IMG/VR virus record: IMGVR_UViG_3300029258_001356 | Coordinates: 1-61,740 of that record | DNA: 61,740 bases | Reading direction: 5' to 3' (one strand) | Source of the DNA: a virus | Taxonomy: Duplodnaviria; Caudoviricetes | Shown: in pieces, positions 3,378 through 61,740 of the stretch | Layout: every line of letters begins with the position of its first letter | Numbering within the stretch: the first letter of the stretch is position 1 | Notes under the pieces: model-generated | Database searches by the model: none | Seen by the model: only the letters and a program-made list of their open reading frames with translations | What the model was told of the DNA's origin: nothing | Made by a program: the position numbers and the translations under genes

Positions 3378-4700
3378 ATGCCAAAGAAAACAAAGAAAGG
3401 AAAGAAAGACAAGGCTGAAAAGAAAGCTTTGGATGTAGACGAAGTACTGAAGCTTGCTTCAGAGAAGACGGGTGTCACACTCAATAAAGTAAAAGAGAGA
3501 TTCAATGACAAGGTCAAGTTATATGAAAAGAAGAATCTCGATAAGAAGGACGCAACCAAGAGAGCAATCAGATGCATCAGCATGTGGATGAAGAGACAGT
3601 TGTCATCCAAGGCAGAAGTATTTACTGGTATCCCTATTGGTGTGTCAGATGTATCAGACTTCGGTGCACAAAGAGATTATGATAATGCCATTAAGGCAGT
3701 CAAAGACGCAGACGGCAATTCTAAGAAGATGAAGAAGCTAGTCAAGAAAGGTCTCATTGATGAAGACGGCACACCCTTATATACAAAAGGATTCAGAGAG
3801 GGAAAGCCAATCAAGCCTTCCGAGAACCAACAGAGGACTGTATATATAATAGGAACCTCAGAGAAAGATAAGGACGCAAAGCCTCAGCTTATTAAGATGA
3901 GCACGAGGGGAGAGAAGCTAGACCTAGATGTTCCGCTATATAAGACATGCTCCTTTAGGGGTAATAGGAAACAGAGCCAGAAAGAAGAAGGTGTCCTATT
4001 AATCAATGCAGCTTCAGTGACAACCTTTGAGCCAGAATCTGATGAGAGAGAAGATATGTTCAAGGCTATCAAGAAGGTTAAGGCACTGAAGAAGTATGTA
4101 ATAGACCTTGAGGATCTTCCACAGCACTTCGAAGAAGAAGCAGATAACTTCAACAGGTTTGCTATTGTCAAGGCATACGTCGCAGATGTTAGATTCGCAG
4201 GCGATGACCAAAGGAACAACATCGTTAAGATATCAGATGATGATATGGAATACGACGAAGACTCATTGACCATTATAACCTGCTGGTGTAATGACAAGAT
4301 ACCAATCAACTTCCAAGAAGGAGCTGAAGTACTTGTCCTTGGAAAGGTCAACCTTAAGAAAGAGACAGGAGACTTATCCATAAACACAGTTGGTGTATTT
4401 GTCGGAGACGTTGACTTCGTTGATAGGGACGCAGAAACTATATCCCCAGAGGAAGACGAAGACGACGAGGAGGAAGACGATGAAGAGGAAGACGAATCTG
4501 ACGACGAAGACGAGGATGATTCTGACGAAGATGATGACGACGATGATGATGATGACGAAGATGACGATTCAGATGATAAGAAGAAAGAATCTGATGATGA
4601 AGAAGACGACGATGACGATGACGATGAAGATTCCGATGACGAAGAGGACGATGATGACGACGAAGACGACGACGACGACGATGACGAGGAGGATGACTGA
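3378..4700 (+). CDS. OB-fold ssDNA-binding protein (RPA-like) with very long Asp/Glu tail
   Basis: OB-like strand pattern (IVKAYV...VKISDD...ITCW...EGAEVLVLGKV), position in replication module, ~85-aa acidic C-terminus. Confidence 0.65.
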   Translation: MPKKTKKGKKDKAEKKALDVDEVLKLASEKTGVTLNKVKERFNDKVKLYEKKNLDKKDATKRAIRCISMWMKRQLSSKAEVFTGIPIGVSDVSDFGAQRDYDNAIKAVKDADGNSKKMKKLVKKGLIDEDGTPLYTKGFREGKPIKPSENQQRTVYIIGTSEKDKDAKPQLIKMSTRGEKLDLDVPLYKTCSFRGNRKQSQKEEGVLLINAASVTTFEPESDEREDMFKAIKKVKALKKYVIDLEDLPQHFEEEADNFNRFAIVKAYVADVRFAGDDQRNNIVKISDDDMEYDEDSLTIITCWCNDKIPINFQEGAEVLVLGKVNLKKETGDLSINTVGVFVGDVDFVDRDAETISPEEDEDDEEEDDEEEDESDDEDEDDSDEDDDDDDDDDEDDDSDDKKKESDDEEDDDDDDDEDSDDEEDDDDDEDDDDDDDEEDD

Positions 4701-5596
4701 TGGGACTTCTTGACAAGAAGGATACTCGAAAAATAAAATCCAAGAAATCCCGGAAGGACAGTGTTCAGCCTTCCGGGGTTTCCCCCGTTTATTCAGACGA
4801 CAAAGTAAAGACGTGGTTTGGTAAACGTATGTCTGACCTATTCTCAGATATCTGCTGCATGATTTATGGGGTAGATGGGACAGGAAAGACAGGAATAGCA
4901 ATATCATACTTCGAGCCTCTTCTTCTTGAGAACAAGAAGCTTGTCATCATAGACCTTGATGGAGGAGCCTGGCCTATTGTCAAAGCACATCACAAGAAAG
5001 CATATGAGGCAGGCAACATCATAATCATAAACCCTATGGTTACTACTGAGGGTGAAGATGGAACAGAGATAGATTACAAGAAGACCTTTGCTAAGATCCG
5101 AGCCATCATTAGATATACCAAGCGGAACTACGAGAAAGATAACATAGCTGGTATTATATTTGACGGATTGTCTACCCTATTGCGTTACGCAGAGTATCAA
5201 ATGCGCATCGAGAAGGGCTTAGACGCAGATGGGACAGTATCCTGGAGATATTGGATGCCAAGGAACAAACTGTTCTTAGAGACGCTCGTATACATCAAGA
5301 GCATACCTATAGCCCGCTTCTTCATTGCACATGATGACTTCATAAAAGAAGACCAAGACCCAAAGAAGAAGTTTGCTTCGGTGAGGAGAGATACTAACTC
5401 TATGATGTTCCAGAAGATTAAGTGTAAACGAGCAGACAAGAAAGGTAAGGTTATCTTCAGAGCAACTATCGATAAGGTCAAATATAATAACACCGCGGAA
5501 GGGAAATCCTTCAAATTCCTTGTGGTCGACAACGACAAAGCAGCGTGGGGCACAGTGAAGCTTTTCAATGCCCTCGATCAGGACGAGAAGATATAG
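4700..5596 (+). CDS. RecA-superfamily (Sak4/AAA_24-like) ATPase, putative recombinase
   Basis: IYGVDGTGKT Walker A, IIDLDGG, IIFDGLS Walker B, FFIAH; adjacent to the SSB gene. Confidence 0.7.
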   Translation: MGLLDKKDTRKIKSKKSRKDSVQPSGVSPVYSDDKVKTWFGKRMSDLFSDICCMIYGVDGTGKTGIAISYFEPLLLENKKLVIIDLDGGAWPIVKAHHKKAYEAGNIIIINPMVTTEGEDGTEIDYKKTFAKIRAIIRYTKRNYEKDNIAGIIFDGLSTLLRYAEYQMRIEKGLDADGTVSWRYWMPRNKLFLETLVYIKSIPIARFFIAHDDFIKEDQDPKKKFASVRRDTNSMMFQKIKCKRADKKGKVIFRATIDKVKYNNTAEGKSFKFLVVDNDKAAWGTVKLFNALDQDEKI

Positions 5597-5964: not shown

Positions 5965-6525
5965 GTGCAAATGATTATAATACTCGAAGGAATAGACAAA
6001 GCCGGCAAATCTACAATCGCAAGAAATCTAGCAAAGCTGCTCAATTGCAGAATTGTAAAAAGACCTAGAGAGCTTCTGCCATTCGCAGATGGAAAGATGG
6101 ATATTGTTCAGCAGTATATGTTTACAGCAGAACTGTTCAAGAAGGAGCAATTCGTAATCTTTGACAGATTCTATCCAAGTGAACTTGTATACTCATATCT
6201 CAGAGGAACAGACAAACTATATAACGAAGCTAATTCTGTCTGGCAATTTGAGAAGTGGTTCATTGAAAAGAACAAGTGTCTTATATTCGTAATAGAAGAT
6301 TATGAAGATGAGATACAGAAAAGGTTTGTTCAAGATAAGGAAGATTATCTTAGAACAGAGGACGTACACGAAATCATAGTCAGATATGAAGTCTTTAAGA
6401 CGCTATCCAAAGCAGATGTAATAATGCTTCCGGCGACACTAAACTTCATGGACAAGATGGAAAGAATTCTATCAGAGATTGCCCATAACACATGCACAAT
6501 AGATATTGAAGAGGATGAATTATAA
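5965..6525 (+). CDS. Thymidylate-kinase-family dNMP kinase
   Basis: IILEGIDKAGKST P-loop; IFDRFYPSELVY motif. Confidence 0.85.
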   Translation: MQMIIILEGIDKAGKSTIARNLAKLLNCRIVKRPRELLPFADGKMDIVQQYMFTAELFKKEQFVIFDRFYPSELVYSYLRGTDKLYNEANSVWQFEKWFIEKNKCLIFVIEDYEDEIQKRFVQDKEDYLRTEDVHEIIVRYEVFKTLSKADVIMLPATLNFMDKMERILSEIAHNTCTIDIEEDEL

Positions 6526-6536
6526 AGATAAGGAGC

Positions 6537-7196
6537 GTGAAAACCATGGTTAATGTAAAATTTTACAAATACACAAAGATTGAGATACCAGAGAATATAA
6601 TAAAGGAACTCTTTGAATCACAGAGAGAGCTTATATTTAAGTATCAACAAGTTGAAAACCTAGGAGAACTAACACCTAAAGGATACTTGACGTCTCTTCA
6701 GACAAAAGCAAGTCAAAAGGTATTGAAAGATTTTGCTTGGAGAGTCACAGAAGAAGTAACAGAGATGTTCCATAGCATATATGAGCAGGATGATCCTGAG
6801 CACCCGAAAGAAGAGATAGCAGACACTATGCATTTCTATGTTGAACTCCTTATACTGTCCGGACTTGACTATGATAAGTTTGAAATGTATAACGTCAAAG
6901 AAAACTGGGTGCCGGTTAAGTATAGAGAGAATGTTTTAGAACTCGAATCTATGAGATTCATAAACCTGCTTGGGGACGCAATGAACATTCTCAAAAATAA
7001 GCCTTGGAAATTATCGGAGGTTCCGTCTGACGAAGACGAGTACATCAGGAGACTTAAGAGAACATTCCCTGCTTTCTTGAGATTGGTGGAAGCATACAAT
7101 TTCACACAGCAGAAAGACTTTGGTATAGAAGAACTCTACATCTATTATACCAAGAAGCACATGGTCAACCACTTCAGAGTTGACACAAAATATTAG
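6537..7196 (+). CDS. All-alpha dimeric dUTPase/dCTPase (MazG-like, T4 gp56-like)
   Basis: EEVTE, EEIADTMHF, KPWK and YYTKKHMVNHFR motifs. Confidence 0.8.
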   Translation: MKTMVNVKFYKYTKIEIPENIIKELFESQRELIFKYQQVENLGELTPKGYLTSLQTKASQKVLKDFAWRVTEEVTEMFHSIYEQDDPEHPKEEIADTMHFYVELLILSGLDYDKFEMYNVKENWVPVKYRENVLELESMRFINLLGDAMNILKNKPWKLSEVPSDEDEYIRRLKRTFPAFLRLVEAYNFTQQKDFGIEELYIYYTKKHMVNHFRVDTKY

Positions 7197-7545: not shown

Positions 7546-7923
7546 ATGGTACAGACTCCTGAAGAAAAGAGAGCAAGAAGAAAAGCTAGACGTCTAGCAC
7601 GATTAAAGAAGGCTGGAGGAAAAGCTCCTAAGAAGAAAGTTAAGAAGGAGAGGAAGCCTAAGAAAGAACGAAAGAAGAGGAAGAAGAGGAGTAAGAAGCT
7701 TGACACTACTGATGTTGTAAAGATAGACAGAGAAATGGTAAAGATAAAGAATATACACGACGGACCTATCAATGTTAATACAACGTCTATTACTAAGAAG
7801 ACAGTTAAGCTAAAACCAAAGGAGAAGTATAAGTTTGTCATTGAGACAAACATAGACAAGACAGAGATTGAGAACTTGAAGAGGATCGGGTTCATCAAAA
7901 TCATAAAACCAAAGGAGGAATAA
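7546..7923 (+). CDS. Hypothetical protein with Lys/Arg-rich N-terminus
   Basis: Operon packing, basic low-complexity N-terminal half. Confidence 0.6.
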   Translation: MVQTPEEKRARRKARRLARLKKAGGKAPKKKVKKERKPKKERKKRKKRSKKLDTTDVVKIDREMVKIKNIHDGPINVNTTSITKKTVKLKPKEKYKFVIETNIDKTEIENLKRIGFIKIIKPKEE

Positions 7924-7925
7924 AA

Positions 7926-8633
7926 ATGAGAATATATAACAACTTTGCCCAAGCATGGGATGAGATAAAGAGAAATGTATCTGAGTTAGGTTTTGTTACA
8001 AAACTATACTCAATGCAGGACAAAATAGTAGAAGGTAATGACGACTACGATACAAAAGAACTTATCGGAGAAGTTTATACCTTAGATGGAGTAAGGACCG
8101 CTGATATGAAGAAGTTCTTCGAAGATAATCCAGACCTAAACCTTAGCTGGGATTGGGTAGTAGAAGATTTCGCAGAAAGAGTAAATCCTAACTATATAAA
8201 CCCAGGAGAAGCCTGGAAGCTCAGAGAGGACGTATGGAAGGAGTTTATGGTACAGGATAAGGGTAGATTCTCTTATACATACAATGAGCGTATACGCGTC
8301 TCTCTTAACCGCGTAATTGAAGAACTAAAGGAACACGGACCATCAAGACAAGCCGTCATATCCGTATGGAATCCTATTAAAGACGTAGACAAGTTAGGAA
8401 TCCACAGAGTTCCTTGTAGTATGTATTATCAGTTCATCCTTAGGAACGGAGAACTTCATATGATATATACAATGAGGTCTTCAGACATCTTGATACATTT
8501 CCCGTACGATGTAGCCACGACTCTTATGCTACAAGAATATGTAGCAGAGAAACTAGGAGTTAAGCCAGGAAGATTCACACACTTCTTGGGAAGCGTACAC
8601 ATGTACAAGAAAGATTGCAAAGGTCACTTCTAG
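7926..8633 (+). CDS. Thymidylate-synthase-fold enzyme, Asp-type (putative dCMP hydroxymethylase/methylase)
   Basis: YTYNER, SRQAVISVW, catalytic RVPC, YQF, MRSSD, HFPYD (Asp where ThyA has Asn), GSVHMY. Confidence 0.8.
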   Translation: MRIYNNFAQAWDEIKRNVSELGFVTKLYSMQDKIVEGNDDYDTKELIGEVYTLDGVRTADMKKFFEDNPDLNLSWDWVVEDFAERVNPNYINPGEAWKLREDVWKEFMVQDKGRFSYTYNERIRVSLNRVIEELKEHGPSRQAVISVWNPIKDVDKLGIHRVPCSMYYQFILRNGELHMIYTMRSSDILIHFPYDVATTLMLQEYVAEKLGVKPGRFTHFLGSVHMYKKDCKGHF

Positions 8634-8634
8634 G

Positions 8635-9276
8635 ATGTTTGCAATCAGAGGAATAGAGTTAGAAGAAGTAATACCCGAGCTTGCTAAGAGAATGAACAAG
8701 CTTGGGGTTATTACACTCTATGACGTCTTCATTGAATGCGGGGTATCTCCCGACTTCAAGAAGATAAAGTGGATGGAGAAGTATTTCCACTTCTTTCTAA
8801 AACATCCAAAGGGTAAGTATAACCACATATGGAAGCATTACTATACCCCTATCATAAACGAACTTAGCGAGAAGCATATAACCGAACTTGTTAAGAAGAC
8901 TCTTATGTTTACCAACACAGGAGGTAAGAAATGTATAGGAATGATTATCTTCGAAGAAAAGACATTGAAAGTATTCTTTCGTTCATCATTCCTAATGCCA
9001 ACAATGTACTATGACCTCATTGTTCTCGATAGGTTTATCAAGTACATATACCCCTGGAGAAAAGTTAATAAAGTAGTATTGTATTTTAATAAAATAAAGA
9101 TCAACACTATCTATGGGCTACCGTTCACACAGCTGCTCATGAGAATAGAGAAACTGTCCCCTTACATGAGAAACCTCAGACGCAGATATCTTAAGAAGGT
9201 AGACCAATATGCACAAAGCAACAACTTTCAAAGATCAAGAGTCTATCGAAGATTCAGAGAAGAATTTGGAAAATGA
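8635..9276 (+). CDS. Degenerate second thymidylate-synthase-fold protein
   Basis: KKCIGMIIF...LKVFFRSS...MYYDL parallels PC...YQF...MRSS...PYD of the upstream gene. Confidence 0.5.
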   Translation: MFAIRGIELEEVIPELAKRMNKLGVITLYDVFIECGVSPDFKKIKWMEKYFHFFLKHPKGKYNHIWKHYYTPIINELSEKHITELVKKTLMFTNTGGKKCIGMIIFEEKTLKVFFRSSFLMPTMYYDLIVLDRFIKYIYPWRKVNKVVLYFNKIKINTIYGLPFTQLLMRIEKLSPYMRNLRRRYLKKVDQYAQSNNFQRSRVYRRFREEFGK

Positions 9277-11903
9277 AGAAAGTCCTTGGGGCTGGCAATA
9301 AGAAAAGCAAGATTGCTATCTTTGGATTAGCCCCTCATCCGAACGGAGCTGGTAAGACTGGAGTTCCGCTAACTTCTATTACTAACAAGAGACTATTTGA
9401 ACCAGAGCTTGAAAGAATTGGATTAAAGAGAGAAGACATCTATATTTCTAATGTTATAAAGAAACCACTTGATGACCCAGACATTGATGACGTTGACCTC
9501 TTGGGTCTCGGCAGAGAGATTCATAAATTGAAAGCAAAGATTATTGTTGGCCTTGGGAAAACAACTTGTCGTGCAATCTGTGATTGCTTTAAGAGAAAGA
9601 AAGTTAAGTTTGAGGAAAACACACTAGTTTATCTGGACAGCAAGCATTTATTATTACAAGTCTATCACCCAAGTTATCATGCAAGAAAAGGAACAAAGCT
9701 ATCATTGGAACATCTTAGATGGATTCTTAAAGAACAATGGGTCATGGTATATCCAAAGCTATGTACTCTCTATCTAAAGTTTAGAAACAAGAAGAAAGAA
9801 CTTCTTGAAATAAAGCTTCTTGGGTTTTATGTATTTGAGCATTACAGAGACCCTGATGGAGAAGCCAAGTCTATCTTTGGAGATAGATATAGAAGACAGA
9901 AAAGAGTCTCTTTCGATCCGGAGCAGTTTATTGTTCATCAGAGAGTTCTCCAACTTAAATATGAAAATTCTAAAATAGGATATTTAGATGTTGAAACCAT
10001 GTATCCATCTCAGCCAGATGTGTGTTCTATAATCACTGTGTTATATAAGAAAACATTCTATGTCTTCGCAAGAGGAAGAAAACCCAAGAAGTCAACATAT
10101 AATGGGTATAAAGTAATTATCAAACCAATCCAGAAATACAGAATGTTTATGGAGAAGATGAACTTCGATATTCTCGCAGGTTGGAATGTTAACTTCGATC
10201 GTGATAAAGTTCAAATTCATATGAGAAGAAAATTCAACATGCAATCATGTTACTTTTATGATATGATGCACTTCTATAAAAAGATTGTAAGAGAGTCTCG
10301 AGTTTGTTACAAGCTAAAATATATAGCATCATATGAACTAGGAACAACCAAAGATGACATAGACACATCAAAGGCAGATGAGGAATATAGAAGAGACCCA
10401 GAGAGAATGATTAAGTATAACATAAAAGATGTTCTTCTCCTTAAACTCCTTAATGACAAACTCACTCTAATCGAATTTGCTGGAGCAATAGCAGAATATG
10501 GAAACGTCAATCTTAGAAAAGTAGAGTGGAACTCTAGAATCATTGAGGCAATGTTTATAAGACAGACAGATCTCTATATCCCAAGAAGACAATTTGGTAA
10601 CGAAGAAGAAATGGATTCTTACCATTTCCGTAAGAAATTTATATCAACAGAAAGTAAGTTTGGTGGAGGATTTGTAATGATTCCGAAGCCTGGGATATAT
10701 GAAAACATTTGTGTCTTTGATATGAAGGCATTGTATCCAAGTATAATGCAGACACTTAACATGTCACCAGAAACATTACGAGTTAGGAGGAAAAGCCATC
10801 ATATACTAGCTCCTTCCGATCCAGACAATAGAAATGACTTAACAATAGAAGACATCGAAAAGTATAAGATAAAATTCTATGAAGATGTTCATTACACAAC
10901 AAAGACTCCTGGGATACTTGCAACACTAGCAAAGAAAACAACAGGAGAAAGAGAAAGACTTAGAAGTCAAATGTCTGGATATGTCAAGACAAAGAAAAAC
11001 AGAAGCTTATATATGAAACAATATGCTGTCAAAGTTCTAGCCAATTCCTTCTTTGGAGTAATGGGATTTGAACACTTCTTCCTCTATGATAAAAGAATAG
11101 CGCAAGGAATATGTGCTATGGGAAGAACCATAATTAAATTCCTTTCAAAGAAAGCAATGAAGCTTGGGTATCAGACAATATATACAGACACAGACTCAAA
11201 CTTTATTAAGATAGATGACGTCAAAGAAATTCCTAAAGTAGAAAAGATGCTTAATAAAAAGCTTAAGAAACTAGGAAAGATATGCAATACTCCGTGCAAT
11301 GCTCTTGAGACAAAATTCGAGAAAAGATATACAAGATTTCTCATAGTTAAGAAGAAGAAGTATGCTGGAATAATTGAAGGGAAAGAAGGAGATCCAGAAG
11401 TAAAAGGATTTGAATGCAAGAGGTCAGACCATTCTAAATACTCAAAAGAGATTCAAAAGAATATGATATTCGACATACTCAAAACAGGAAAGATAAAAAC
11501 AAAATACCCCACACATCCAAATGAACTGAAGGCTATTCCTCTTAGAGATTTAGCTGTTCCAAAGAAGCTAACAAAAGACTTAGATGACTACAGCAGAAAG
11601 AGTCCGCCGATTCATGTAAGAGCTGCTAGAAAGTCTGGGATTGAATTAAATAAGCATGACACTGTCTGGTATCTTAATTTATATGGCGGAGATGTTGTAG
11701 CAATCAACAACATGAACGACGAAGAAATAGATGCTCACAAGAACAAAGTCGATTATTATTATATGTTCAACAAGACAGTGATTCCAAAACTTAATCTCAT
11801 ACTCAATCTAATGGATATACATATCGAAGATGTCAAGATAAATAATTTCAAATCTGTAGTTGGAAATAAACTTCTGCAAGATTTCCTGGAGTTTTCAACA
11901 TGA
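9273..11903 (+). CDS. polB: Family B DNA polymerase with N-terminal uracil-DNA-glycosylase-like domain
   Basis: UDG family 4-like: GxGN...IFGLAP...TGVP...YISNVIK...VGLGKT...YHPSY. Exo motifs YLDVET, GWNVNFD, YNIKDV. Pol motifs DMKALYPS, KVLANSFFG, YTDTDS, KKKY. Confidence 0.93.
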   Translation: MKKVLGAGNKKSKIAIFGLAPHPNGAGKTGVPLTSITNKRLFEPELERIGLKREDIYISNVIKKPLDDPDIDDVDLLGLGREIHKLKAKIIVGLGKTTCRAICDCFKRKKVKFEENTLVYLDSKHLLLQVYHPSYHARKGTKLSLEHLRWILKEQWVMVYPKLCTLYLKFRNKKKELLEIKLLGFYVFEHYRDPDGEAKSIFGDRYRRQKRVSFDPEQFIVHQRVLQLKYENSKIGYLDVETMYPSQPDVCSIITVLYKKTFYVFARGRKPKKSTYNGYKVIIKPIQKYRMFMEKMNFDILAGWNVNFDRDKVQIHMRRKFNMQSCYFYDMMHFYKKIVRESRVCYKLKYIASYELGTTKDDIDTSKADEEYRRDPERMIKYNIKDVLLLKLLNDKLTLIEFAGAIAEYGNVNLRKVEWNSRIIEAMFIRQTDLYIPRRQFGNEEEMDSYHFRKKFISTESKFGGGFVMIPKPGIYENICVFDMKALYPSIMQTLNMSPETLRVRRKSHHILAPSDPDNRNDLTIEDIEKYKIKFYEDVHYTTKTPGILATLAKKTTGERERLRSQMSGYVKTKKNRSLYMKQYAVKVLANSFFGVMGFEHFFLYDKRIAQGICAMGRTIIKFLSKKAMKLGYQTIYTDTDSNFIKIDDVKEIPKVEKMLNKKLKKLGKICNTPCNALETKFEKRYTRFLIVKKKKYAGIIEGKEGDPEVKGFECKRSDHSKYSKEIQKNMIFDILKTGKIKTKYPTHPNELKAIPLRDLAVPKKLTKDLDDYSRKSPPIHVRAARKSGIELNKHDTVWYLNLYGGDVVAINNMNDEEIDAHKNKVDYYYMFNKTVIPKLNLILNLMDIHIEDVKINNFKSVVGNKLLQDFLEFST

Positions 11904-12883
11904 AGAAGCTAATCCCAAAATTACCAATAGAACTTGGATTTCCACGGAGAGTATATTGTGGAAGCAGAAAGTTTCTATATACTATGGTAAACAAGTATAA
12001 TAAGATAAAGAATGTCTACTTCTCCTTATACTCTTGTGGGAAAGATAGAGATTATGGAGAAGACACAAGATTCCGAAAGTTTAACATTCATATGATATAC
12101 TTTGACTTTGATGAAGCGTCAGCTTTCTTTGATGTCTGTAAGCTTCATGATTATTGTAAGTCAAAGAATATTAATCACACAATGGTTTTCAGCGGAGGAG
12201 GTTATCACTTCTACATATTTACAAAGAAAGGAAAGAAACTAAAGAACCCCAAGTCAGCATTAAGAAAATCCCAAGACTTCTTTTGCAAGATGCTTGGACT
12301 TAATCTTGACGAGCATGTGAGAGGAGACATTAAAAGAATCTCAAGAGTCCCAAACACATGGAATAAGAAGAGAAAGAGATACTGTATACCAATCTCAGAA
12401 GAAGACTTAAAGGAAGGAGAAGCATTCATAAAAAAGAAAGCTTCCAAGCAACACTTCCAATTCTATTTTTATGGGAATGACTTTTTTGACATATCCAAAT
12501 ATGACACTGGGGAAAGAGGGGACAGACTCGAATTTCCAGAAGTCGAAAAGAAGCTGAAGATAAAGATCAAAGGGGATGAGGTTCTAAAGAGCCTACCTCT
12601 TTGTATCTCTTCACTTCTTGCTCGTGGAAATCCCGGGTGGCGTGAAAGATATCTCATAATATCATATCTCAGAGATAGCGGATATATACAAAGCGAAGTA
12701 GTGGAGATCCTACAGAAATTTTTGACTAAAGCAAAATTCAACCATTGTGTCTATGAAGAAGAACAAGTTAAGTATTTATTTAGAAGATCTGAACTGTTCT
12801 TCCCTTCTTGTATCGCAATGAGAAATGAAGGGAGATGTCCTAAGAAGAAGAAATGTAAACACAAGGACAAACTATATGCATAA
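11900..12883 (+). CDS. Archaeo-eukaryotic primase, PriS catalytic domain fused to PriL-like C-terminal domain
   Basis: YFDFD, FSGGGYH, DIKRISRVPNT; C-terminal LPLCI...PSC...CP...C cysteine pattern. Confidence 0.85.
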   Translation: MKKLIPKLPIELGFPRRVYCGSRKFLYTMVNKYNKIKNVYFSLYSCGKDRDYGEDTRFRKFNIHMIYFDFDEASAFFDVCKLHDYCKSKNINHTMVFSGGGYHFYIFTKKGKKLKNPKSALRKSQDFFCKMLGLNLDEHVRGDIKRISRVPNTWNKKRKRYCIPISEEDLKEGEAFIKKKASKQHFQFYFYGNDFFDISKYDTGERGDRLEFPEVEKKLKIKIKGDEVLKSLPLCISSLLARGNPGWRERYLIISYLRDSGYIQSEVVEILQKFLTKAKFNHCVYEEEQVKYLFRRSELFFPSCIAMRNEGRCPKKKKCKHKDKLYA

Positions 12884-12961: not shown

Positions 12962-13303
12962 ATGGAAAAGAAAAAAAGAAGACTGAAGAATCCTAAGCGA
13001 AAGGGAATAGTATTTGAAAGAAAGACTAGAAAAGTATTAGAAGCACAGGGATTCTTTTGTGTAAGACAAGCAGCGTCTATCTTTCCAGACATAGTAGCAA
13101 TAGCCCCAAAGACTGGTGAAGTTCATTTTATAGAATGCAAGGTTAAGGCTAAATATTTTTCAAGAAGAGAAAGAGAATACCTTCTTGAGATGCAGAAAAA
13201 ATACAACGTCAAACCATTTCTTGCATATAAGAAAAGAGAAGGAAGATATGTCAATGTTCAGATTGACCCAGTTGTTCCATTAGTAAAAGAAAAAGAAAAA
13301 TGA
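12962..13303 (+). CDS. hjc: Archaeal-type Holliday junction resolvase
   Basis: KGIVFER...GFFCVRQAAS..PDIVA...IECK PD-(D/E)xK signature. Confidence 0.88.
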   Translation: MEKKKRRLKNPKRKGIVFERKTRKVLEAQGFFCVRQAASIFPDIVAIAPKTGEVHFIECKVKAKYFSRREREYLLEMQKKYNVKPFLAYKKREGRYVNVQIDPVVPLVKEKEK

Positions 13304-14286
13304 AAAAAATATTGTTAGTTGATGCCGATTCAAAGATACCGAACATAGCATTGATGAAGTTATCGACATATTGGAAGAAGCATGGATATAAAATAGACTT
13401 CATGAAGCTAGGTTTATCCTTTTACAAAGATACCAAGAATCCAATAATTGTTGATGCTAAAGGATACAGGAAAGTCTTTGTCTCTATTGTATTTGACAAC
13501 AACCGCAATTCTGTAAAAGTAATTAATGCTAAGGGTCAAGTTAGATTTGGTGGAGCAGGGTATAATATCAAGTCCAAACTCCCAAAACGAATTGATGCAA
13601 TAGCCGAAGACTATTCTCTATATCCAGACAATGACATATCCTATGGATTCATAACAAGAGGATGTGTTAAGAATTGTGACTTCTGTATAGTAAGACAGAA
13701 AGAAGGACGATTGAAAAGATATAGAAAGATTGAAGACATACAGAAGCATGAGAAAGTATATTTCTTAGATAATAATATACTTGCCTATTCAAAATGTAAT
13801 GACGTCTTGAGAGAACTGATTGATAAGAAAATCAAATGCCGGTTCATACAAGGATTAGACATTGCGTTTATAGATAATGAGAAAGCTAAATTACTTTCTG
13901 AGTTAAGATATGACATGTCTTACATCTTTGCTTTTGATAATATCAAAGACCTAAAGATGATAAAAAGGAAGCTAAAGATTCTGAGAAAATATCTTGGAGA
14001 TTGGAAAATAAAATTCTTCTTATACTGTCATCCGAGAATGAGTCTCAAGAAAGATATAATGTTTAGAATTAATTTCTGTAGAGAAAATAAAATTCTTCCT
14101 TATATCATGAGAGACAAAGCTTGTTACAAATCTGAGTATGACTTTTTCTTTAAAGACATAGCAGCTTGGTGCAATCAACCATCTCTATTCAAGAAGAAGT
14201 CATTTCTACAATTTCTTAAGATGAGACATAAGAATCCGAAAAGAATAAAATATTCAAAAGGAGTTTATGATGAAATACAGAATTAA
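13300..14286 (+). CDS. Radical SAM protein
   Basis: TRGCVKNCDFC (CxxxCxxC), FLDNN, QGLD; N-terminal LVDADSKIPNIALMK. Confidence 0.85.
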   Translation: MKKILLVDADSKIPNIALMKLSTYWKKHGYKIDFMKLGLSFYKDTKNPIIVDAKGYRKVFVSIVFDNNRNSVKVINAKGQVRFGGAGYNIKSKLPKRIDAIAEDYSLYPDNDISYGFITRGCVKNCDFCIVRQKEGRLKRYRKIEDIQKHEKVYFLDNNILAYSKCNDVLRELIDKKIKCRFIQGLDIAFIDNEKAKLLSELRYDMSYIFAFDNIKDLKMIKRKLKILRKYLGDWKIKFFLYCHPRMSLKKDIMFRINFCRENKILPYIMRDKACYKSEYDFFFKDIAAWCNQPSLFKKKSFLQFLKMRHKNPKRIKYSKGVYDEIQN

Positions 14287-32230: not shown

Positions 32231-33256
32231 TCATGTAATTGTAGTTGTGAGAAGTGTTGGCTTCTCATCTATTGTATTGTTCATTGTAGCTCCTGCTGGA
32301 GATGGAGCCTGAACAGTGAACTTAACTCCTCTGTCTGAGTAAGTTTTTATCTCTGCGTCTACCTTGACTGTTCTATCTGAATACCCATTTTGTTCTGCTT
32401 CAAACTTAACAGTCCTTTCCGAGAACCCGAATACCTCTGCTTCGAACTTTAGTTCTCTATGATCATCATCTGGTTGTTCTGCTTCAAACTTAACTCCTCT
32501 GTTTGAATAATCAACTCTTTCTGCTGTAAACTTAACAAGTCTGTCTCTATATCGTTCGAGATATGCATCAAATTTAACTCCTCTTCCTGAATGTGCAACT
32601 ATCTCTGCTTCTGTTTTAACAGACCTGTCACTGAATGATTTTATCTCAGCTTCAAACTTAATTGGTTTATCATCGAGATGTTCTACTTCAGCTAGGAAGA
32701 TAATACCCCTATTAGTTACACCATTCTGTTCTGCTTCAAATTTAAGATCTCTACCAGAAGTTGTTAATATCTCTGCATCAAAGATAACAGACCTATCTGT
32801 GTATCCAGTCTGCCTAGCCTCAAATTTTAATCCTCTATCTGAAAAGTCTATCTGCTCTGCTTCAAACTTAACTGGTCTATCTATATCTTCTGGCTGTTCT
32901 GCTATGAATTTTAAATTTCTATCTGAATGACCAAAAACTTCTGGCTCTATCTTAACAGACCTATCACTGAATCCTCTTGCTGCTGCATTAAATTTAACTC
33001 CTCTGTCAGAGACTCCGAATACTTCAGCTTCAACTTTAATTGTTCTGTCACTATGTCCAAAAACTTCAGCTTGTGTAATCACTAGTCTTCCATCGTCAAC
33101 AACTATTGCTGCTGTGAATTTAACTCCTCTTCCCGATGTTCCACTTGTAGATAATGGCTGTTCAGATCCTTGAGATGATTCTGTCCCAATGAATTTTTGG
33201 TACTCATCTTCAGAAGATCTTTGTCCTTCATTAAATGTATTATTAAATGTAGCCAT
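32231..33256 (-). CDS. Fibre-shaft-like protein with ~20 x 14-aa repeats
   Basis: Repeating G-x-S-D-R-x-V-K-F-E-A-E-x-x. Confidence 0.7.
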   Translation of the reverse strand: MATFNNTFNEGQRSSEDEYQKFIGTESSQGSEQPLSTSGTSGRGVKFTAAIVVDDGRLVITQAEVFGHSDRTIKVEAEVFGVSDRGVKFNAAARGFSDRSVKIEPEVFGHSDRNLKFIAEQPEDIDRPVKFEAEQIDFSDRGLKFEARQTGYTDRSVIFDAEILTTSGRDLKFEAEQNGVTNRGIIFLAEVEHLDDKPIKFEAEIKSFSDRSVKTEAEIVAHSGRGVKFDAYLERYRDRLVKFTAERVDYSNRGVKFEAEQPDDDHRELKFEAEVFGFSERTVKFEAEQNGYSDRTVKVDAEIKTYSDRGVKFTVQAPSPAGATMNNTIDEKPTLLTTTIT

Positions 33257-48320: not shown

Positions 48321-49067
48321 TTACTTCTCTAGCCCAACTATTACAGTGTCTACGTCCTGTGACCCTTTGTCAATGTTGTGTTTAATCAACTTGACATTGT
48401 TTGTAGCTGCTACCACCAGCGGAACTGGTAAGTCCCAATATCTTGTATCAAATGGTGGTGGACATCTTAGAACAAACTTCGTCACTTCTGACCCAGATGG
48501 TCCTACCTGAATCTCAACTTTAACCTTTCCAGATCCAGATGCTCCTATCTGTCTCAGATATAGTGTCTTTCCTGCAGTAACTGTATAGATGTGATTTGCA
48601 CTACTAGATGCACCTATAGTGTCGCTCTGATAGTCGTGTATCTCATCTCCAGACCCTGATTCATTTATGTGTACTTCATAAACATCTCCGGCTTCCTGCT
48701 TTGCCATAACGCTGTCTTGTGAAGAATCTAAATCTCTTATATCAAAGTCTGTCGCTACAACTGTTGCGTTTAAATTTGCTGCAGTAGCTTGTCTAACCTC
48801 AACACTGTCTGATGAGTAGTCCAAATCTCTTATATCGAAATCTGTGGCTACTACGGTAGCATTAAGGTTTGCGGCTGTTGACTGGAGCACTTCTATACTA
48901 TCAGATGCACTTGTCAAATCTCTTATATCGAGATCTGTTGCTCTAATTAGACCTGCTCCCGCTGAATCGATGTCCCAAAAATAAGTGTTGGTCTCATCGA
49001 TCATTCTCATGACGACATCGCCATGATTCTCTGTTCGGACTGGAACCGAACTTGCGTAATCTCCCAT
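48321..49067 (-). CDS. Putative virion protein with 31-aa ATDxDIRDL repeats (paralogue set)
   Basis: Three ATD(L/F)DIRDL units; YTVTAGKTLYL. Confidence 0.6.
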   Translation of the reverse strand: MGDYASSVPVRTENHGDVVMRMIDETNTYFWDIDSAGAGLIRATDLDIRDLTSASDSIEVLQSTAANLNATVVATDFDIRDLDYSSDSVEVRQATAANLNATVVATDFDIRDLDSSQDSVMAKQEAGDVYEVHINESGSGDEIHDYQSDTIGASSSANHIYTVTAGKTLYLRQIGASGSGKVKVEIQVGPSGSEVTKFVLRCPPPFDTRYWDLPVPLVVAATNNVKLIKHNIDKGSQDVDTVIVGLEK

Positions 49068-51872: not shown

Positions 51873-53204
51873 CTAATGATTTGTCGTATTCGTTCCTATG
51901 GAATCACCAGAACCTAGTGGAAGGATTGCGTCTACATATACGTCACCTTCTTCATCCGGATCTCCTATTCTCATCTTTCTTATCGGTAGAGGGTCTGCGT
52001 CTACATGCGGAGCTAACCTGTTATCATTCTCTACGCCTTCATCTACCTTCTCTCCTTGACTTACCATTTCGTTGTATGCTCCCAACGGATCTGGCATCTT
52101 CAAAGGAGCAGGCGCCATCTCACCTATATCATCTCTTCCTATTCTTAGTTTCCTAGGCATTTCTTCGCCTGGGATATGATGTCTATGCTTATATGCTATC
52201 TCATTGTAATTGGGAGATGTAACCCTATGCACTTCTCTTCCATCTTCCTTCCATTGCTCCCTCTTAACTCCATTGTCTACCTCTGATGAATAATCTTGCA
52301 TGTCTGCAACCTCCATTGCGTTTTTGAATCGTGCTAAAGGACCTAAGCCATAATGATCAAGAAGCGGTGTCCCTCCGAAGTCATTGAGTCTCTTGACCAG
52401 CTTCACCATCTTCTTGTAGTTGTCTCCAATTTGGGCGTATTGCAAAAGGTTTTCTCTGTGTGTTAAGATAGCCCTTTGCAACATAGGGTGTATGTCCGCC
52501 TTCATCTGTGCCTTGAATCTTAAGGCTCTTAAGATGATAGATGGATCACGGGCTAAAACCACTTCTGGGTCTAGCGGAGTTCTAATTACGTTTTCTCGTG
52601 CATCCTTGATACCTAATCCCGTAGGATCGTAATACTTCCCTGATAGAGGTTCTTTGAATACTGCATTGAATGTAAAATCCCTAGAATAAGCGTCTTCATT
52701 GATTGGTGTTATGGGTATCTCTTGTCTATCCATCTCTTCATGTACCCAATGAAGAATTTGCTTCAGACCTCTGAACTCTACATTGATGTCATCTATAACT
52801 AGGTGTGCTACACCACTCTTAGAACCATGGTCTGGATTAGGAAGATTCTCGTCTCTGGCTACCAGATACGCTAAGGCAATCGAGTTACCTCTTTCCAGCG
52901 TAGTAAGGTCAGCATCAGAAGACTCGTCGAATGGGATATTGGCAAGTTCATTCCTGACAATACCACCAGAGACGAGAAGCGTCATATCATTCTTTTGTGC
53001 TAGGATACCTATCTCCCTCAGAAGATTATCCATTTCCGCTTTTGTTGAACCTGTTTCAATCATTTTCAATTTTCTTAACATCTTGAAGGTCTTTGTCGAA
53101 GGATGAAATAATCTCCACCTTATCTCCTTCCTTAACTTCCCAGTATCCTCGATCGACATTATACTGTGCCTTCTTCCATTGGCCTTTGTGTAGAATGTTA
53201 GCAT
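51873..53204 (-). CDS. Class II tRNA nucleotidyltransferase / poly(A) polymerase family protein with altered template motif
   Basis: SGGIVRN...DADLT (motif A), EDAYSRDFTFNA (B), YYDPTG.G..D (C), RDPSIILRALRF (D/E; canonical EDxxRxxRxxRF). Confidence 0.85.
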   Translation of the reverse strand: MLTFYTKANGRRHSIMSIEDTGKLRKEIRWRLFHPSTKTFKMLRKLKMIETGSTKAEMDNLLREIGILAQKNDMTLLVSGGIVRNELANIPFDESSDADLTTLERGNSIALAYLVARDENLPNPDHGSKSGVAHLVIDDINVEFRGLKQILHWVHEEMDRQEIPITPINEDAYSRDFTFNAVFKEPLSGKYYDPTGLGIKDARENVIRTPLDPEVVLARDPSIILRALRFKAQMKADIHPMLQRAILTHRENLLQYAQIGDNYKKMVKLVKRLNDFGGTPLLDHYGLGPLARFKNAMEVADMQDYSSEVDNGVKREQWKEDGREVHRVTSPNYNEIAYKHRHHIPGEEMPRKLRIGRDDIGEMAPAPLKMPDPLGAYNEMVSQGEKVDEGVENDNRLAPHVDADPLPIRKMRIGDPDEEGDVYVDAILPLGSGDSIGTNTTNH

Positions 53205-57266: not shown

Positions 57267-57461
57267 TCATTTCTCTGTCACCTCTTCTTCCCAAGGACAG
57301 CCAAGACAGTTATCCTCTTCACAGTCTTCACACATATTGCCTATCTCAGATATGCACAACATCTTAGCTCTATACTTCTTTCCTTTGAAGTGAATACCAT
57401 CTAGTCTTACTTCAAAGAACTTCGATGGAATTTCTATTGTCTTAACTTTTTCTTCACTCAT
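57267..57461 (-). CDS. Hypothetical Cys-containing protein
   Basis: GGAGG RBS; shares a 17-aa block with its neighbour. Confidence 0.55.
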   Translation of the reverse strand: MSEEKVKTIEIPSKFFEVRLDGIHFKGKKYRAKMLCISEIGNMCEDCEEDNCLGCPWEEEVTEK

Positions 57462-57639
57462 TTTTGTCGTCCTCCTTGTACCACTTCTTACTTATCTTTG
57501 GTCTGGCTCCCTTCATTCTATACAAGGCAACCTCTGTGTGTATCACCAGTTTCTTTGGCATGAGTAGTTTGAGTGCAGCTACATCTTGCTCAGATATGCA
57601 CAACATCTTAGCTCTATACTTCTTTCCTTTGAAGTGAAT
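57345..57639. repeat. Exact 51-bp direct repeat (57345-57395 and 57589-57639)
   Basis: CTCAGATATGCACAACATCTTAGCTCTATACTTCTTTCCTTTGAAGTGAAT occurs twice. Confidence 0.9.
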
Positions 57640-60771: not shown

Positions 60772-61235
60772 TTTCCTTTCTCCTTAGGCATTGGAATTGG
60801 CGTAGGCATGTGAATACTAACATGACCAGGATATAGTCTTTTCATTTCACCATTCTCATTAATCTGTATGTATCCTTTTCCAAATACCTTAATGTCTTCT
60901 TCAACTTCTTGTACAATATCATGTGGTATTGAAACATCAGACCTCATTGGAATTCTAGCTCCATCGTATGATTCTAATTCATTGACAAGAGCCTTGACGT
61001 CTACATCTACTCTGCCTTCCATTCTTAGATATGAATCGTATGCCTCTTTGAGATATACCCACTTGCCATAATACTGACCGATCAATCCTTTCTTCATCTC
61101 ACGAAGTATAGCGTTACTCTCACGGATTCCTATCATCTTATTTGGAAATCCAGGAGTAAAGACTATCAAATCTTTCTTCTCAAGATTCTTGATCTCTTCT
61201 CCAGGCATTATTAGTTTCTCATCAAACGTTATCAT
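60768..61235 (-). CDS. Hypothetical protein with portal-like C-terminal motif
   Basis: DIKVFGKGYIQINENG...RLYP resembles the portal LxGNxY...lxP segment. Confidence 0.5.
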   Translation of the reverse strand: MITFDEKLIMPGEEIKNLEKKDLIVFTPGFPNKMIGIRESNAILREMKKGLIGQYYGKWVYLKEAYDSYLRMEGRVDVDVKALVNELESYDGARIPMRSDVSIPHDIVQEVEEDIKVFGKGYIQINENGEMKRLYPGHVSIHMPTPIPMPKEKGK

Positions 61236-61236
61236 T

Positions 61237-61575
61237 TCAAAACCCCCTCTCTACTCTTTCCTTCTCTGCCTTTGCTGCTGCTTCTACCTCTTCCCTGGAC
61301 AATCCAAAGAACTCTACTATCCATTTGCATGTTGTAACTCCTGCATATAATTCAGGATTCTTCTTCAAATACTCAAGATCAAGTTTTTCGTCATGATATT
61401 CTTTCCAATATTTTATGTGAAAGAAGATCTGTCCTATCGCCATCTGTATATCATTGGATATTCGTATGAACTCTGATGCAGCCCTCTCTCTAGCCCAGTC
61501 CTTGAAGCCAAGATTCATACCATTAAGAACTTTCATTGGGCACATGTCCAATGTGTATTCTGATTTCCCTATCAT
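61237..61575 (-). CDS. Hypothetical protein
   Basis: Tight packing with neighbours. Confidence 0.6.
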   Translation of the reverse strand: MIGKSEYTLDMCPMKVLNGMNLGFKDWARERAASEFIRISNDIQMAIGQIFFHIKYWKEYHDEKLDLEYLKKNPELYAGVTTCKWIVEFFGLSREEVEAAAKAEKERVERGF

Positions 61576-61596
61576 TTTAAAATCCCCTCTCTATCT

Positions 61597-61740
61597 TTTC
61601 CTTCTCTGCCAAAGACAAGAGCTTAAACATGTGATGGGCTAGAGGATTTGTTTCTAGTTCTCTTCTGACCTTACACATTGACTCTTCATCTACTGCACCA
61701 ATCCTCAACAGCACTCTATTCTCTGCTTCTCTACCGGTAC
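61597..61740. repeat. Terminal direct repeat (copy 2)
   Basis: Identical to 1-144. Confidence 0.95.

Follow-up and report, generated by a model that had tools for sequence, protein, structure and literature searches.

Whether the replicative DNA polymerase of a virus can carry a uracil-DNA glycosylase (UDG) within its own polypeptide chain, and what such a domain would do there, is the question raised by one gene of the virus record IMGVR_UViG_3300029258_001356 (Duplodnaviria; Caudoviricetes) from IMG/VR. The record was analyzed over its full length of 61,740 nucleotides, which is called the window in the following and to which all positions refer unless another locus is named. An earlier reading of the letters alone, here called the original prediction, had described the open reading frame (ORF) at 9273..11903 as a UDG-like domain fused to a family B DNA polymerase (PolB) with deviating active-site motifs. 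It had proposed that the domain reads or repairs a modified base or its deamination product, and it had regarded the polymerase as an enzyme suited to a modified deoxynucleotide. The covalent UDG-PolB fusion stands, and its parts are arranged as follows:

9273..11903, plus strand: whole UDG-PolB gene, a single open frame, identified by Pfam, PHROGs and NCBIfam
9273..9731, plus strand: domain of the UDG superfamily (residues 1-153) that lacks the N-terminal Fe-S segment (Pfam, phmmer, AF2/Foldseek)
9735..9977, plus strand: PolB N-terminal domain, first part (residues 155-235), on which the UDG is predicted to dock (homology, model)
9978..10472, plus strand: 3'-5' exonuclease domain (Exo I-III residues; weak Pfam exonuclease matches)
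10635..11804, plus strand: polymerase domain, Pfam 455-844, with motif A at 483-490, motif B at 587-595, motif C at 637-642 and KKxY at 694-697
11865..11888, plus strand: PIP-box-like (PCNA-interacting peptide) tail N865-L872 (NKLLQDFL), a candidate clamp-binding peptide by pattern match only

The gene encodes 876 amino acids without internal stops, and no stop occurs in 902 codons when the in-frame codons upstream are included. Its ATG start overlaps the stop of the upstream ORF in an ATGA, and its own stop overlaps in the same way the start of 11900..12883, which has weak matches to AEP-type (archaeo-eukaryotic) primases. Pfam recognizes both halves. The UDG (PF03167) spans residues 6-149 with an E value of 5.7e-14, its 52.8 bits being well over the cut-off of 24.3, and DNA_pol_B (PF00136) covers residues 455-844 with an E value of 7.4e-48; PHROGs and NCBIfam also identify the polymerase. 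A six-frame search, in which PF03167 reached 56.8 bits on UDG-PolB, revealed the fused domain as the sole UDG of the genome. Logan contigs from four sequencing runs belonging to three studies (sediment and seawater metagenomes) are free of differences to the window over positions 8600-10413 or 8600-11847, although these are assembled contigs rather than raw reads and three of the four runs may represent the source sample. They span the domain junction near 9735 and are identical over the whole UDG-PolB gene or its first 1140 nucleotides. No RNA run is listed among the sequencing runs that contain the sequence. Apart from the possible origin of three runs from the source sample, nothing speaks for a frameshift, a mis-assembly or a chimera, the artefact that the original prediction had itself named as a danger. 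This explanation is exceedingly improbable and was rejected because of the identical contigs across the junction, the 902 codons without a stop and the recurrence of the same architecture in nine other fetched proteins and seven IMG/VR loci.

Residues 1-153 are a member of the UDG superfamily in the neighborhood of family 4, family 5 and UdgX; judged by the defining features they are neither family 4 nor family 5. They exceed the profile cut-off, adopt an alpha/beta UDG fold and possess the histidine of the HPS motif together with the base-reading asparagine. When the Protein Data Bank (PDB) was searched with phmmer, 1L9G/1VK2 matched residues 4-140 at an E value of 3e-8. Solved family 4 structures from Thermotoga, Sulfolobus and Thermus matched the first 160-200 residues at E values from 3e-8 to 1e-5, and the family 5 enzyme UDGb (2D3Y) followed at 7e-4 with an alignment limited to residues 3-53. 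An AF2 (AlphaFold2) model of residues 1-160 reached a predicted local distance difference test score (pLDDT) of 78.4 and a predicted template modeling score (pTM) of 0.78. With this model Foldseek retrieved 4ZBX, 1L9G, 1UI0, 6AIL and 2D3Y at a probability of 1.00 and template modeling scores (TMq) of 0.69-0.74, the family 5 structure 2D3Y scoring 0.74; TDG/MUG enzymes are also among the fold matches, beside UdgX and the UDGs of families 4 and 5. The original prediction was thus right in expecting a UDG fold at the N-terminus, as the model retrieves UDG structures. Its assignment of the domain to family 4 fails, because the Fe-S ligands and the equivalents of Glu41, Glu47 and Phe54 have been lost and the family 4 model TIGR00758 of NCBIfam gives 48.1 bits for the domain alone, far from its cut-off of 125.3.

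For a comparison of the pockets, residues of the domain were mapped onto UDGa of Thermus (Tth) by alignment to 1UI0 and 2D3Y. Three elements matter most:

9324..9371, plus strand: loop of motif A at residues 18-33 (GLAPHPNGAGKTGVPL), resembling family 5 both in sequence and in length (aligned to 1UI0 and 2D3Y)
9450..9452, plus strand: N60, equivalent by alignment to Asn80 of Tth UDGa, the reader of uracil N3/O4
9666..9674, plus strand: motif B, H132-P133-S134, with H132 equivalent by alignment to the catalytic His155 of Tth UDGa

The motifs GLAPH (18-22), GVPL (30-33) and HPS (132-134), all quoted in the original prediction, are present. Kept with respect to Tth UDGa are Asn80 (N60) and His155 (H132). 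Lost are Glu41 (L19), Phe54 (L33) and the thymine-gate residue Glu47, which corresponds to A26 in a loop that is one residue longer, while the replacement of Gly42 by A20 is a normal variant of the family. The motif A loop aligns without gaps to that of family 5 UDGb in 2D3Y (GLAPGAHGSNRTGRPF vs. GLAPHPNGAGKTGVPL), and GLAPH itself corresponds, again without gaps, to the GLAPG-type loop of family 5 (FGLAPGAHGSNRTGRPF vs. FGLAPHPNGAGKTGVPL) with His instead of Gly as the fifth residue. To judge from these alignments, the GLAPH loop is neither just a degraded GEAPG nor a product of random decay. Compared with family 5, I36 takes the place of the catalytic Asp75 of UDGb (2D3Y) and L33 that of Phe72. 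In Tth UDGa, Glu47 blocks thymine, Phe54 stacks and Asn80 reads uracil N3/O4; the exchange H155S costs about 2500-fold in activity, E41Q 888-fold, E47A about 120-fold and F54A 17-fold, and family 5 enzymes excise bases other than uracil (PMC5387724).

All four cysteines that bind the 4Fe-4S cluster are absent from the UDG domain, as the original prediction had suspected. The domain begins at about residue 31 of the Thermotoga maritima family 4 enzyme, i.e., some 30 residues into the family 4 fold, so that the N-terminal CxxC is not encoded, and the 26 in-frame codons upstream of the ATG contain a single cysteine, no CxxC and no other start. At a further ligand position the NVVKC of family 4 reads NVIKK, with lysine for cysteine. 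The only cysteines of the domain, C99, C103 and C105, lie on one helix (9567-9587, plus strand), away from the ligand positions of family 4. In all ten N-terminally fused UDG domains that were compared, P21, N60, G95 and H132 are invariant. This conservation speaks for constraint on the reading of bases and possibly also on catalysis.

The body that follows the UDG domain is a complete proofreading family B polymerase with intact exonuclease and polymerase. Residues 158-225 correspond to the very N-termini (residues 5-60) of unfused PolBs; the UDG has therefore been added ahead of a complete PolB, which retains its own N-terminal domain. The model of the whole protein (pLDDT 77.5, pTM 0.72, from an alignment of 41 sequences) has beta strands at 155-210, and Foldseek matched it to the PolBs 9N, KOD and Tgo at template modeling scores (TMt) of 0.70-0.73, the best match (9N/KOD) having an E value of 1.8e-37 and a TMt of 0.73 over 814 columns; RB69 gp43 is matched as well. 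A body of family A (Klenow type) was also considered and rejected, since both Pfam (DNA_pol_B) and Foldseek lead to family B; over the exonuclease region there is a weak match to DNA_pol_A_exo1 (E 0.0026) that remains below the cut-off. The residues of Exo I (D239, E241), Exo II (N305, F308, D309) and Exo III (Y382, D386) are present and are invariant or nearly so in 176-189 aligned homologues. Present, too, are the polymerase residues D483, Y488, K587, N591, G595, D639, T640, D641, K694, K695 and Y697. The motif variants reported by the original prediction are indeed found, DMKALYPS at 483-490, NSFFG at 591-595 and YTDTDS at 637-642, and the deviating positions A486, F594 and T638 are non-catalytic. 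A PIP-box-like tail resembling that of UDG-PolB occurs in 42 of 175 fetched PolBs of at least 650 amino acids, and a gene for PCNA or a beta-clamp was not recognizable in the 61,740-base genome. Together, the tail and the missing match to a clamp of its own suggest that the virus may rely on a clamp of its host.

With regard to the arrangement of the two parts, the full-length model predicts a linker of only a few residues, the UDG helix 145-152 running nearly straight into the PolB strand 155-162. When the two halves were folded as separate chains, the interface score ipSAE reached 0.82 (0.80-0.82 in three runs) as compared to 0.01 for the best of three controls. The 0.82 mark is attained by 58 of 80 solved complexes and by two of 110 mismatched pairs, a calibration that is only rough here, as the partners are halves of one chain and a custom alignment was used. 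The docking runs share at least 91% of their contacts, with a partner pLDDT of 87 or more. The predicted interface joins residues 89-90, 108-126 and 147-155 of the UDG to residues 168-186 and 219-232 of PolB. Motif A, N60 and H132 all lie outside it, and the pocket is therefore predicted to stay open. These models support a fixed placement of the UDG on the PolB N-terminal domain, to which it is probably attached rigidly; the score is no sign of binding in trans.

UDG-PolB has no close relative among 1.8 billion representatives, the best full-length matches being unfused PolBs of about 740-790 amino acids with 34-37% identity. The search for UDG-PolB architectures that the original prediction had suggested yielded N-terminal fusions in ten of 193 fetched PolBs and, in addition, a family of seven loci in IMG/VR. 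Four types of fusion can be distinguished: canonical family 4 domains with cysteines (GE[GA]PG, RPF) in P0159 and P0079, an AENPG type with cysteines in P0026, P0032, P0033 and P0037, a G(Q/V)NPG or AQNPG type without cysteines in P0067, P0143 and P0148, and the protein of the window, which forms a type by itself. The seven IMG/VR loci (L082-L088) belong to the AENPG family of P0026, with 63-71% identity and fusion over the full length of about 1085 amino acids, and Pfam confirms the fusion in L082. Whole-protein searches of IMG/VR with UDG-PolB of the window, P0067 and P0159 returned no relative. No fused UDG was present in any of 80 further IMG/VR loci or 80 genome and metagenome-assembled genome (MAG) loci with PolB relatives; among loci with PolB relatives, L012 is the one case in which a stand-alone UDG ORF follows PolB. 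In a collection of 50,697 GenBank phage records, tblastn with the UDG domain gave no match, and searches with the full protein and with P0026 gave none that covered at least 80% of the query, so that no phage of this collection shows a similar fusion.

A FastTree phylogeny of 169 PolB bodies, for which rows shorter than 650 or longer than 1120 amino acids were left out, requires the fusion label to change six times (five times or more when judged by starred branches). Several independent origins of UDG-PolB are likely from this tree, a conclusion weakened by long branches that meet, and the protein of the window sits on a long branch (1.28) outside any supported clade. The 80 best PolB relatives in cellular and MAG assemblies (L089-L168) stem mostly from archaeal MAG contigs, including Methanocellales, Methanophagales, Archaeoglobi, Woesearchaeota and Desulfurococcaceae. 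Taken together with an Hjc resolvase and the AEP primase encoded by the virus, the PolB relatives give a weak hint of an archaeal host, with the reservation that the search pattern biases the list.

The genome of the window is complete, and an exact direct terminal repeat of 144 nucleotides occupies positions 1-144 and 61597-61740; such a repeat fits a genome that is complete or circularly permuted with a unique length of 61,596 bp. As large terminase, portal, tape measure and minor tail protein are encoded on the minus strand, the virus is a tailed one. Genes for replication and nucleotide metabolism form a block on the plus strand, in which UDG-PolB is preceded, in this order, by a dNMP kinase, an NTP pyrophosphatase, two small ORFs, a ThyA homologue and a 213-residue protein:

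5965..6525, plus strand: thymidylate-kinase-like dNMP kinase (Pfam PF02223, E 1.4e-8; phrog_761, E 1.1e-14)
6537..7196, plus strand: dUTPase_2/MazG-like NTP pyrophosphohydrolase (Pfam PF08761, E 1.8e-7; phrog_12184, E 1.1e-16)
7926..8633, plus strand: ThyA-family enzyme with Asp at the specificity position, PYDVAT (Pfam PF00303, E 2.8e-22)
8635..9276, plus strand: 213-residue protein, translationally coupled to UDG-PolB, no Pfam, PHROG or NCBIfam match
11900..12883, plus strand: AEP-type primase, weak (Pfam AEP-TOTE, E 0.0033; DNA_primase_S, E 0.0038; phrog_16345, E 2.2e-5)

The ThyA homologue is of particular interest because it reads PYDVAT where thymidylate synthases (TS) read PFNIAS (Asn177/Asn229 position). 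Its best PDB matches are 1NJC and 1NJD, entries of the N229D mutant of Lactobacillus casei TS that read PFDIAS; other entries for this enzyme read PFNIAS. Asp at this position shifts the substrate from dUMP to dCMP (PMC8670742, PMC6400193), and the homologue is therefore probably an enzyme of the cytosine type, a dCMP hydroxymethylase or methylase, by which the virus would make 5-hydroxymethyl- or 5-methyl-dCMP. Hence the modified base assumed by the original prediction is very likely a modified cytosine. Together with the dNMP kinase and the NTP pyrophosphatase, the Asp-type ThyA resembles a T4-like cassette for cytosine replacement. A similar order of genes is found in L043 (7732-11839 of that locus), with a Tmk-like kinase, a MazG/PRA-PH-like pyrophosphatase, an Asp-type ThyA (E 1e-47 to that of the window) and PolB, this PolB being unfused, 797 amino acids long and equipped with the canonical motifs SLYPS, NSFYG and YGDTDS. 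Within the L043 locus no UDG was found, and a PrimPol-DnaB fusion lies upstream of its cassette. In all seven loci of the AENPG family an Asn-type ThyA-like gene lies about 1.4 kb downstream of the polymerase, as compared to only four of 80 unfused loci with a ThyA-like gene, all four of the Asp type. The association of the fusion with ThyA-like genes thus comes from two independent lineages, the AENPG family and the window, and is only suggestive.

The 213-residue protein between ThyA and UDG-PolB may be a second, very diverged protein of the ThyA fold. A lead from the protein atlas, in which ThyA-like clusters came up with a feature score of 0.88 and a structure TM of 0.60-0.72, was not confirmed by a local ThyA hidden Markov model (E 0.08). 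The ORF at 7546-7923 (plus strand) encodes 125 amino acids, very rich in Lys and Arg in the first half and without a family match, and may be DNA-binding. A radical S-adenosylmethionine (SAM) protein is encoded at 13300-14286 (plus strand; phrog_9298, E 5.4e-58), its Pfam match being confined to the CxxxCxxC region, and is flanked by the Hjc-type resolvase and a superfamily 2 helicase. Between portal and large terminase, 51873-53204 (minus strand) is nucleotidyltransferase-like (phrog_2244, tRNA nucleotidyltransferase, E 1.6e-13); tRNA genes were not found in the genome. Repeats comprise eight copies with a period of 84 nucleotides at 32312-33052 (minus strand) inside ORF 32231-33256, a run with a period of 9-15 nucleotides at 4425-4708 (plus strand) at the end of ORF 3378-4700, a tandem pair of 93 nucleotides at 48708-48893 (minus strand), an exact pair of 51 nucleotides spaced 244 nucleotides apart at 57345-57639 and, near the right end, a pair of 41 nucleotides with 88% identity spaced 340 nucleotides apart at 61230-61610.

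Based on these data, the question of function can be addressed for both halves of the protein. The original prediction had taken DMKALYP, NSFFG and YTDTDS as adaptations of the polymerase to a modified nucleotide, which would here be modified dCTP. The very probable synthesis of modified dCMP by the virus is in keeping with this, as is the rarity of Thr at the second position of motif C, which falls outside the seven commonest residues, the seventh being present in three of 185 sequences. However, 15 of 189 homologues likewise have Ala instead of Ser in motif A, 14 of 186 have Phe instead of Tyr in motif B (each about 8%), and the second position of motif C varies naturally (Gly in 123, Ala in 21 and Ser in 18 of the 185 sequences). 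All catalytic residues are in place, and L043 combines the same type of ThyA cassette with canonical motifs. Likewise, the polymerases of T4 and RB69 use hydroxymethyl-dCTP with canonical motifs. Adaptation to modified dCTP is accordingly quite an improbable explanation of the motif variants, and we do not follow the original prediction in this respect.

For the UDG domain we favor, with a likelihood somewhat short of even, a role as sensor or glycosylase for uracil-type bases that would act in cis at the replication fork, an interpretation drawn from sequence, models and analogy; the likelihoods given for this role and for the two alternatives discussed with it below are judgements. According to this proposal, the UDG domain, compact, free of Fe-S and packed on the N-terminal domain of a replicative family B enzyme, would inspect the DNA on which this enzyme works for bases of the uracil type. 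N60 would read N3/O4 and H132 would stabilize the leaving base, so that catalysis is left possible. The pocket would probably be wider and slower than that of family 4 and able to admit 5-substituted uracils, because the Glu41 residue, the Glu47 gate and Phe54 are lost and the motif A loop resembles that of the broad-specificity family 5. With cytosine replaced by way of the Asp-type ThyA, the targets would include the deamination products 5-hydroxymethyluracil (5hmU) or thymine. The idea of template reading ahead of the fork is borrowed from the poxvirus holoenzyme and from the SP15-like fusions of UDG to family A polymerase (UDG-PolA); in the latter, the 5' template strand is read by the UDG before the fork arrives (PMC13697223). 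That the domain reads or repairs a deamination product, as put forward in the original prediction, is plausible in this light and compatible with the loss of gate and Phe and the retention of Asn and His in the sequence.

Several observations weigh against such a role. Judged from its sequence, the pocket is badly damaged by the rules of family 4, with Glu41, Glu47 and Phe54 replaced, and Asp75 of family 5 has likewise given way to I36. The motif A loop is the least confident part of the models (pLDDT below 50 at residues 21-39 of the full model and 26-28 of the domain model). No downstream enzyme of base excision (AP, i.e., apurinic/apyrimidinic, endonuclease of two families, ATP-dependent ligase) is recognizable in the genome, unlike in SP15-like phages. 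L043, finally, has an unfused PolB and no UDG in its locus in spite of the same Asp-type ThyA cassette, so that a lifestyle with modified cytosine does not depend on the domain. Some of these points would also suit the main alternative, a catalytically dead UDG that serves as a module for DNA binding, processivity or strand displacement, which we regard as less likely than the sensor or glycosylase. The missing Glu41, Glu47, Phe54 and Fe-S cluster as well as the missing catalytic residue of family 5, the lack of a recognizable PCNA or beta-clamp gene and of an AP endonuclease or ligase to complete repair, and the predicted rigid docking on the polymerase would all suit an inert module. A contribution to processivity has been proposed in print for UDG-PolA of N4- and T5-like phages (PMC3201878, PMC10201439), and the poxvirus UDG as part of a processivity factor is analogous. 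N60 and H132, however, are invariant in ten of ten fused domains, and they matter for catalysis and for the reading of the base, not for contacts to the backbone; the inactive N4-like domains have lost the hairpin bearing the His (PMC10201439), which the domain of the window has kept, and the PIP-box-like tail suggests a host clamp as the source of processivity. Alternatively, the domain could be an ordinary uracil-specific repair UDG that is fused merely for co-expression and removes misincorporated or deaminated uracil uncoupled from synthesis. Its sequence is overall closest to family 4 UDGs, stand-alone UDG genes adjoin PolB in other viruses, e.g., in L012, and in the fusions P0159 and P0079 the set of GE[GA]PG, RPF and Cys is still complete. 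Yet the copy in the window lacks the active-site and Fe-S features of family 4 and falls well below the family cut-off (48.1 vs. 125.3 bits), and a linker of few residues with a confidently predicted interface between the domains does not suggest mere co-expression, so that this alternative appears improbable.

The proposed in-cis sensor or glycosylase has its closest working analogues in UDG-PolA of phages with modified T and in the polymerase of poxviruses together with the UDG subunit. Phages with UDG-PolA (SPO1, SP-10, the SP-15/YerA41/phiLo group and N4-like cluster 17), to which the original prediction had correctly pointed as fusions in modified-DNA phages, resemble the virus of the window in having an N-terminal UDG fixed in the replicase chain and pyrimidine-modification genes that adjoin the polymerase; active as well as degenerate versions of the UDG exist among them (PMC10201439, PMC13697223). 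Their polymerase belongs to family A, whereas that of the window is of family B with an archaeal/T4-type fold, and the UDG of the window differs by the absence of Fe-S ligands and by its family-5-like motif A. The SP15-like phages, moreover, encode PolX and a ligase, whereas ligase and AP endonuclease were not found in the window and PolX was not searched for. An attachment of UDG-fold proteins to family B replicases is known from the poxvirus holoenzyme (family B polymerase, UDG D4/E4 and A20/A22) and from contacts between polymerase and UDG in herpesviruses, and there the UDG contacts the template ahead of the active site and aids processivity (PMC13697223, PMC4889955, PMC3201878). In poxviruses the association occurs in trans via a bridging subunit, whereas here it is covalent, with a family 4/5-like domain on the PolB N-terminal domain. 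The UDG of poxviruses is family 1-type.

Among the glycosylases themselves, family 4 (1UI0, 1L9G, 4ZBX) provides the best overall match in sequence and fold, and the domain of the window shares with it the equivalents of Asn80 and His155 and the HPS motif; it deviates by the absent Fe-S cysteines, by L19, A26 and L33 for E41, E47 and F54, and by a score below the NCBIfam cut-off. With family 5 UDGb (2D3Y) it has in common the length of the motif A loop, the GLAP start and a Leu-Ala doublet replacing Glu-Gly, and it differs by I36 for Asp75, L33 for Phe72 and, again, the lack of Fe-S ligands. Archaeal PolBs (Pfu, Tgo, KOD; 2VWK and 7OMG, fold matches on ranks 17 and 43) also tie uracil sensing to the PolB N-terminal domain. 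Their pocket, however, lies inside that domain and only stalls synthesis, whereas here a separate domain of UDG fold has been added on.

Two arrangements are already established, the fusion of UDG to polymerases of family A and its binding in trans to those of family B; the covalent UDG-PolB is annotated but undiscussed in the literature searched. Precomputed Pfam annotations of metagenomic proteins already show its architecture, and no description of it was found in the passages searched, among them those of PMC4889955, PMC10201439, PMC3201878, PMC4046053, PMC13697223 and PMC8670742. In the main text of a survey of PolB diversity (PMC7544198) the word glycosylase is absent, and supplements may list such architectures. 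The copy in the window is distinctive by the combination of an Fe-S-free, mixed family 4/5 pocket with a modified-cytosine context.

Cryo-electron microscopy work from 2026 shows that UDG fused to family A phage polymerases scans the template ahead of the fork, and its authors suggest that this logic extends to family B, for which only partners in trans (poxvirus, herpesvirus) were known. With a natural covalent UDG-PolB, the surveillance of bases during replication could be tested for family B in a compact system that consists of one chain. Its UDG is of the smallest kind and bears on the question which residues are truly needed for recognition and excision of a base. As family B polymerases are workhorses of PCR and synthetic nucleic-acid chemistry, a built-in reader of uracil or 5-substituted uracils could also have technical interest. 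For the virus itself, a complete, uncultivated marine one with apparent replacement of cytosine, the finding links the architecture of the polymerase to hypermodification of DNA. In its furthest form, which we consider unlikely, UDG-PolB would be a viral counterpart of the archaeal read-ahead sensor, a minimal, Fe-S-free hybrid of family 4 and 5 UDGs that has lost its gate, recognizes or excises deamination products of the modified base (5hmU or T opposite G) in the template during replication and has arisen several times in PolB lineages beside pyrimidine-modifying genes of the ThyA family. If this were true, surveillance of a non-canonical genome would be coupled to the replicase itself.

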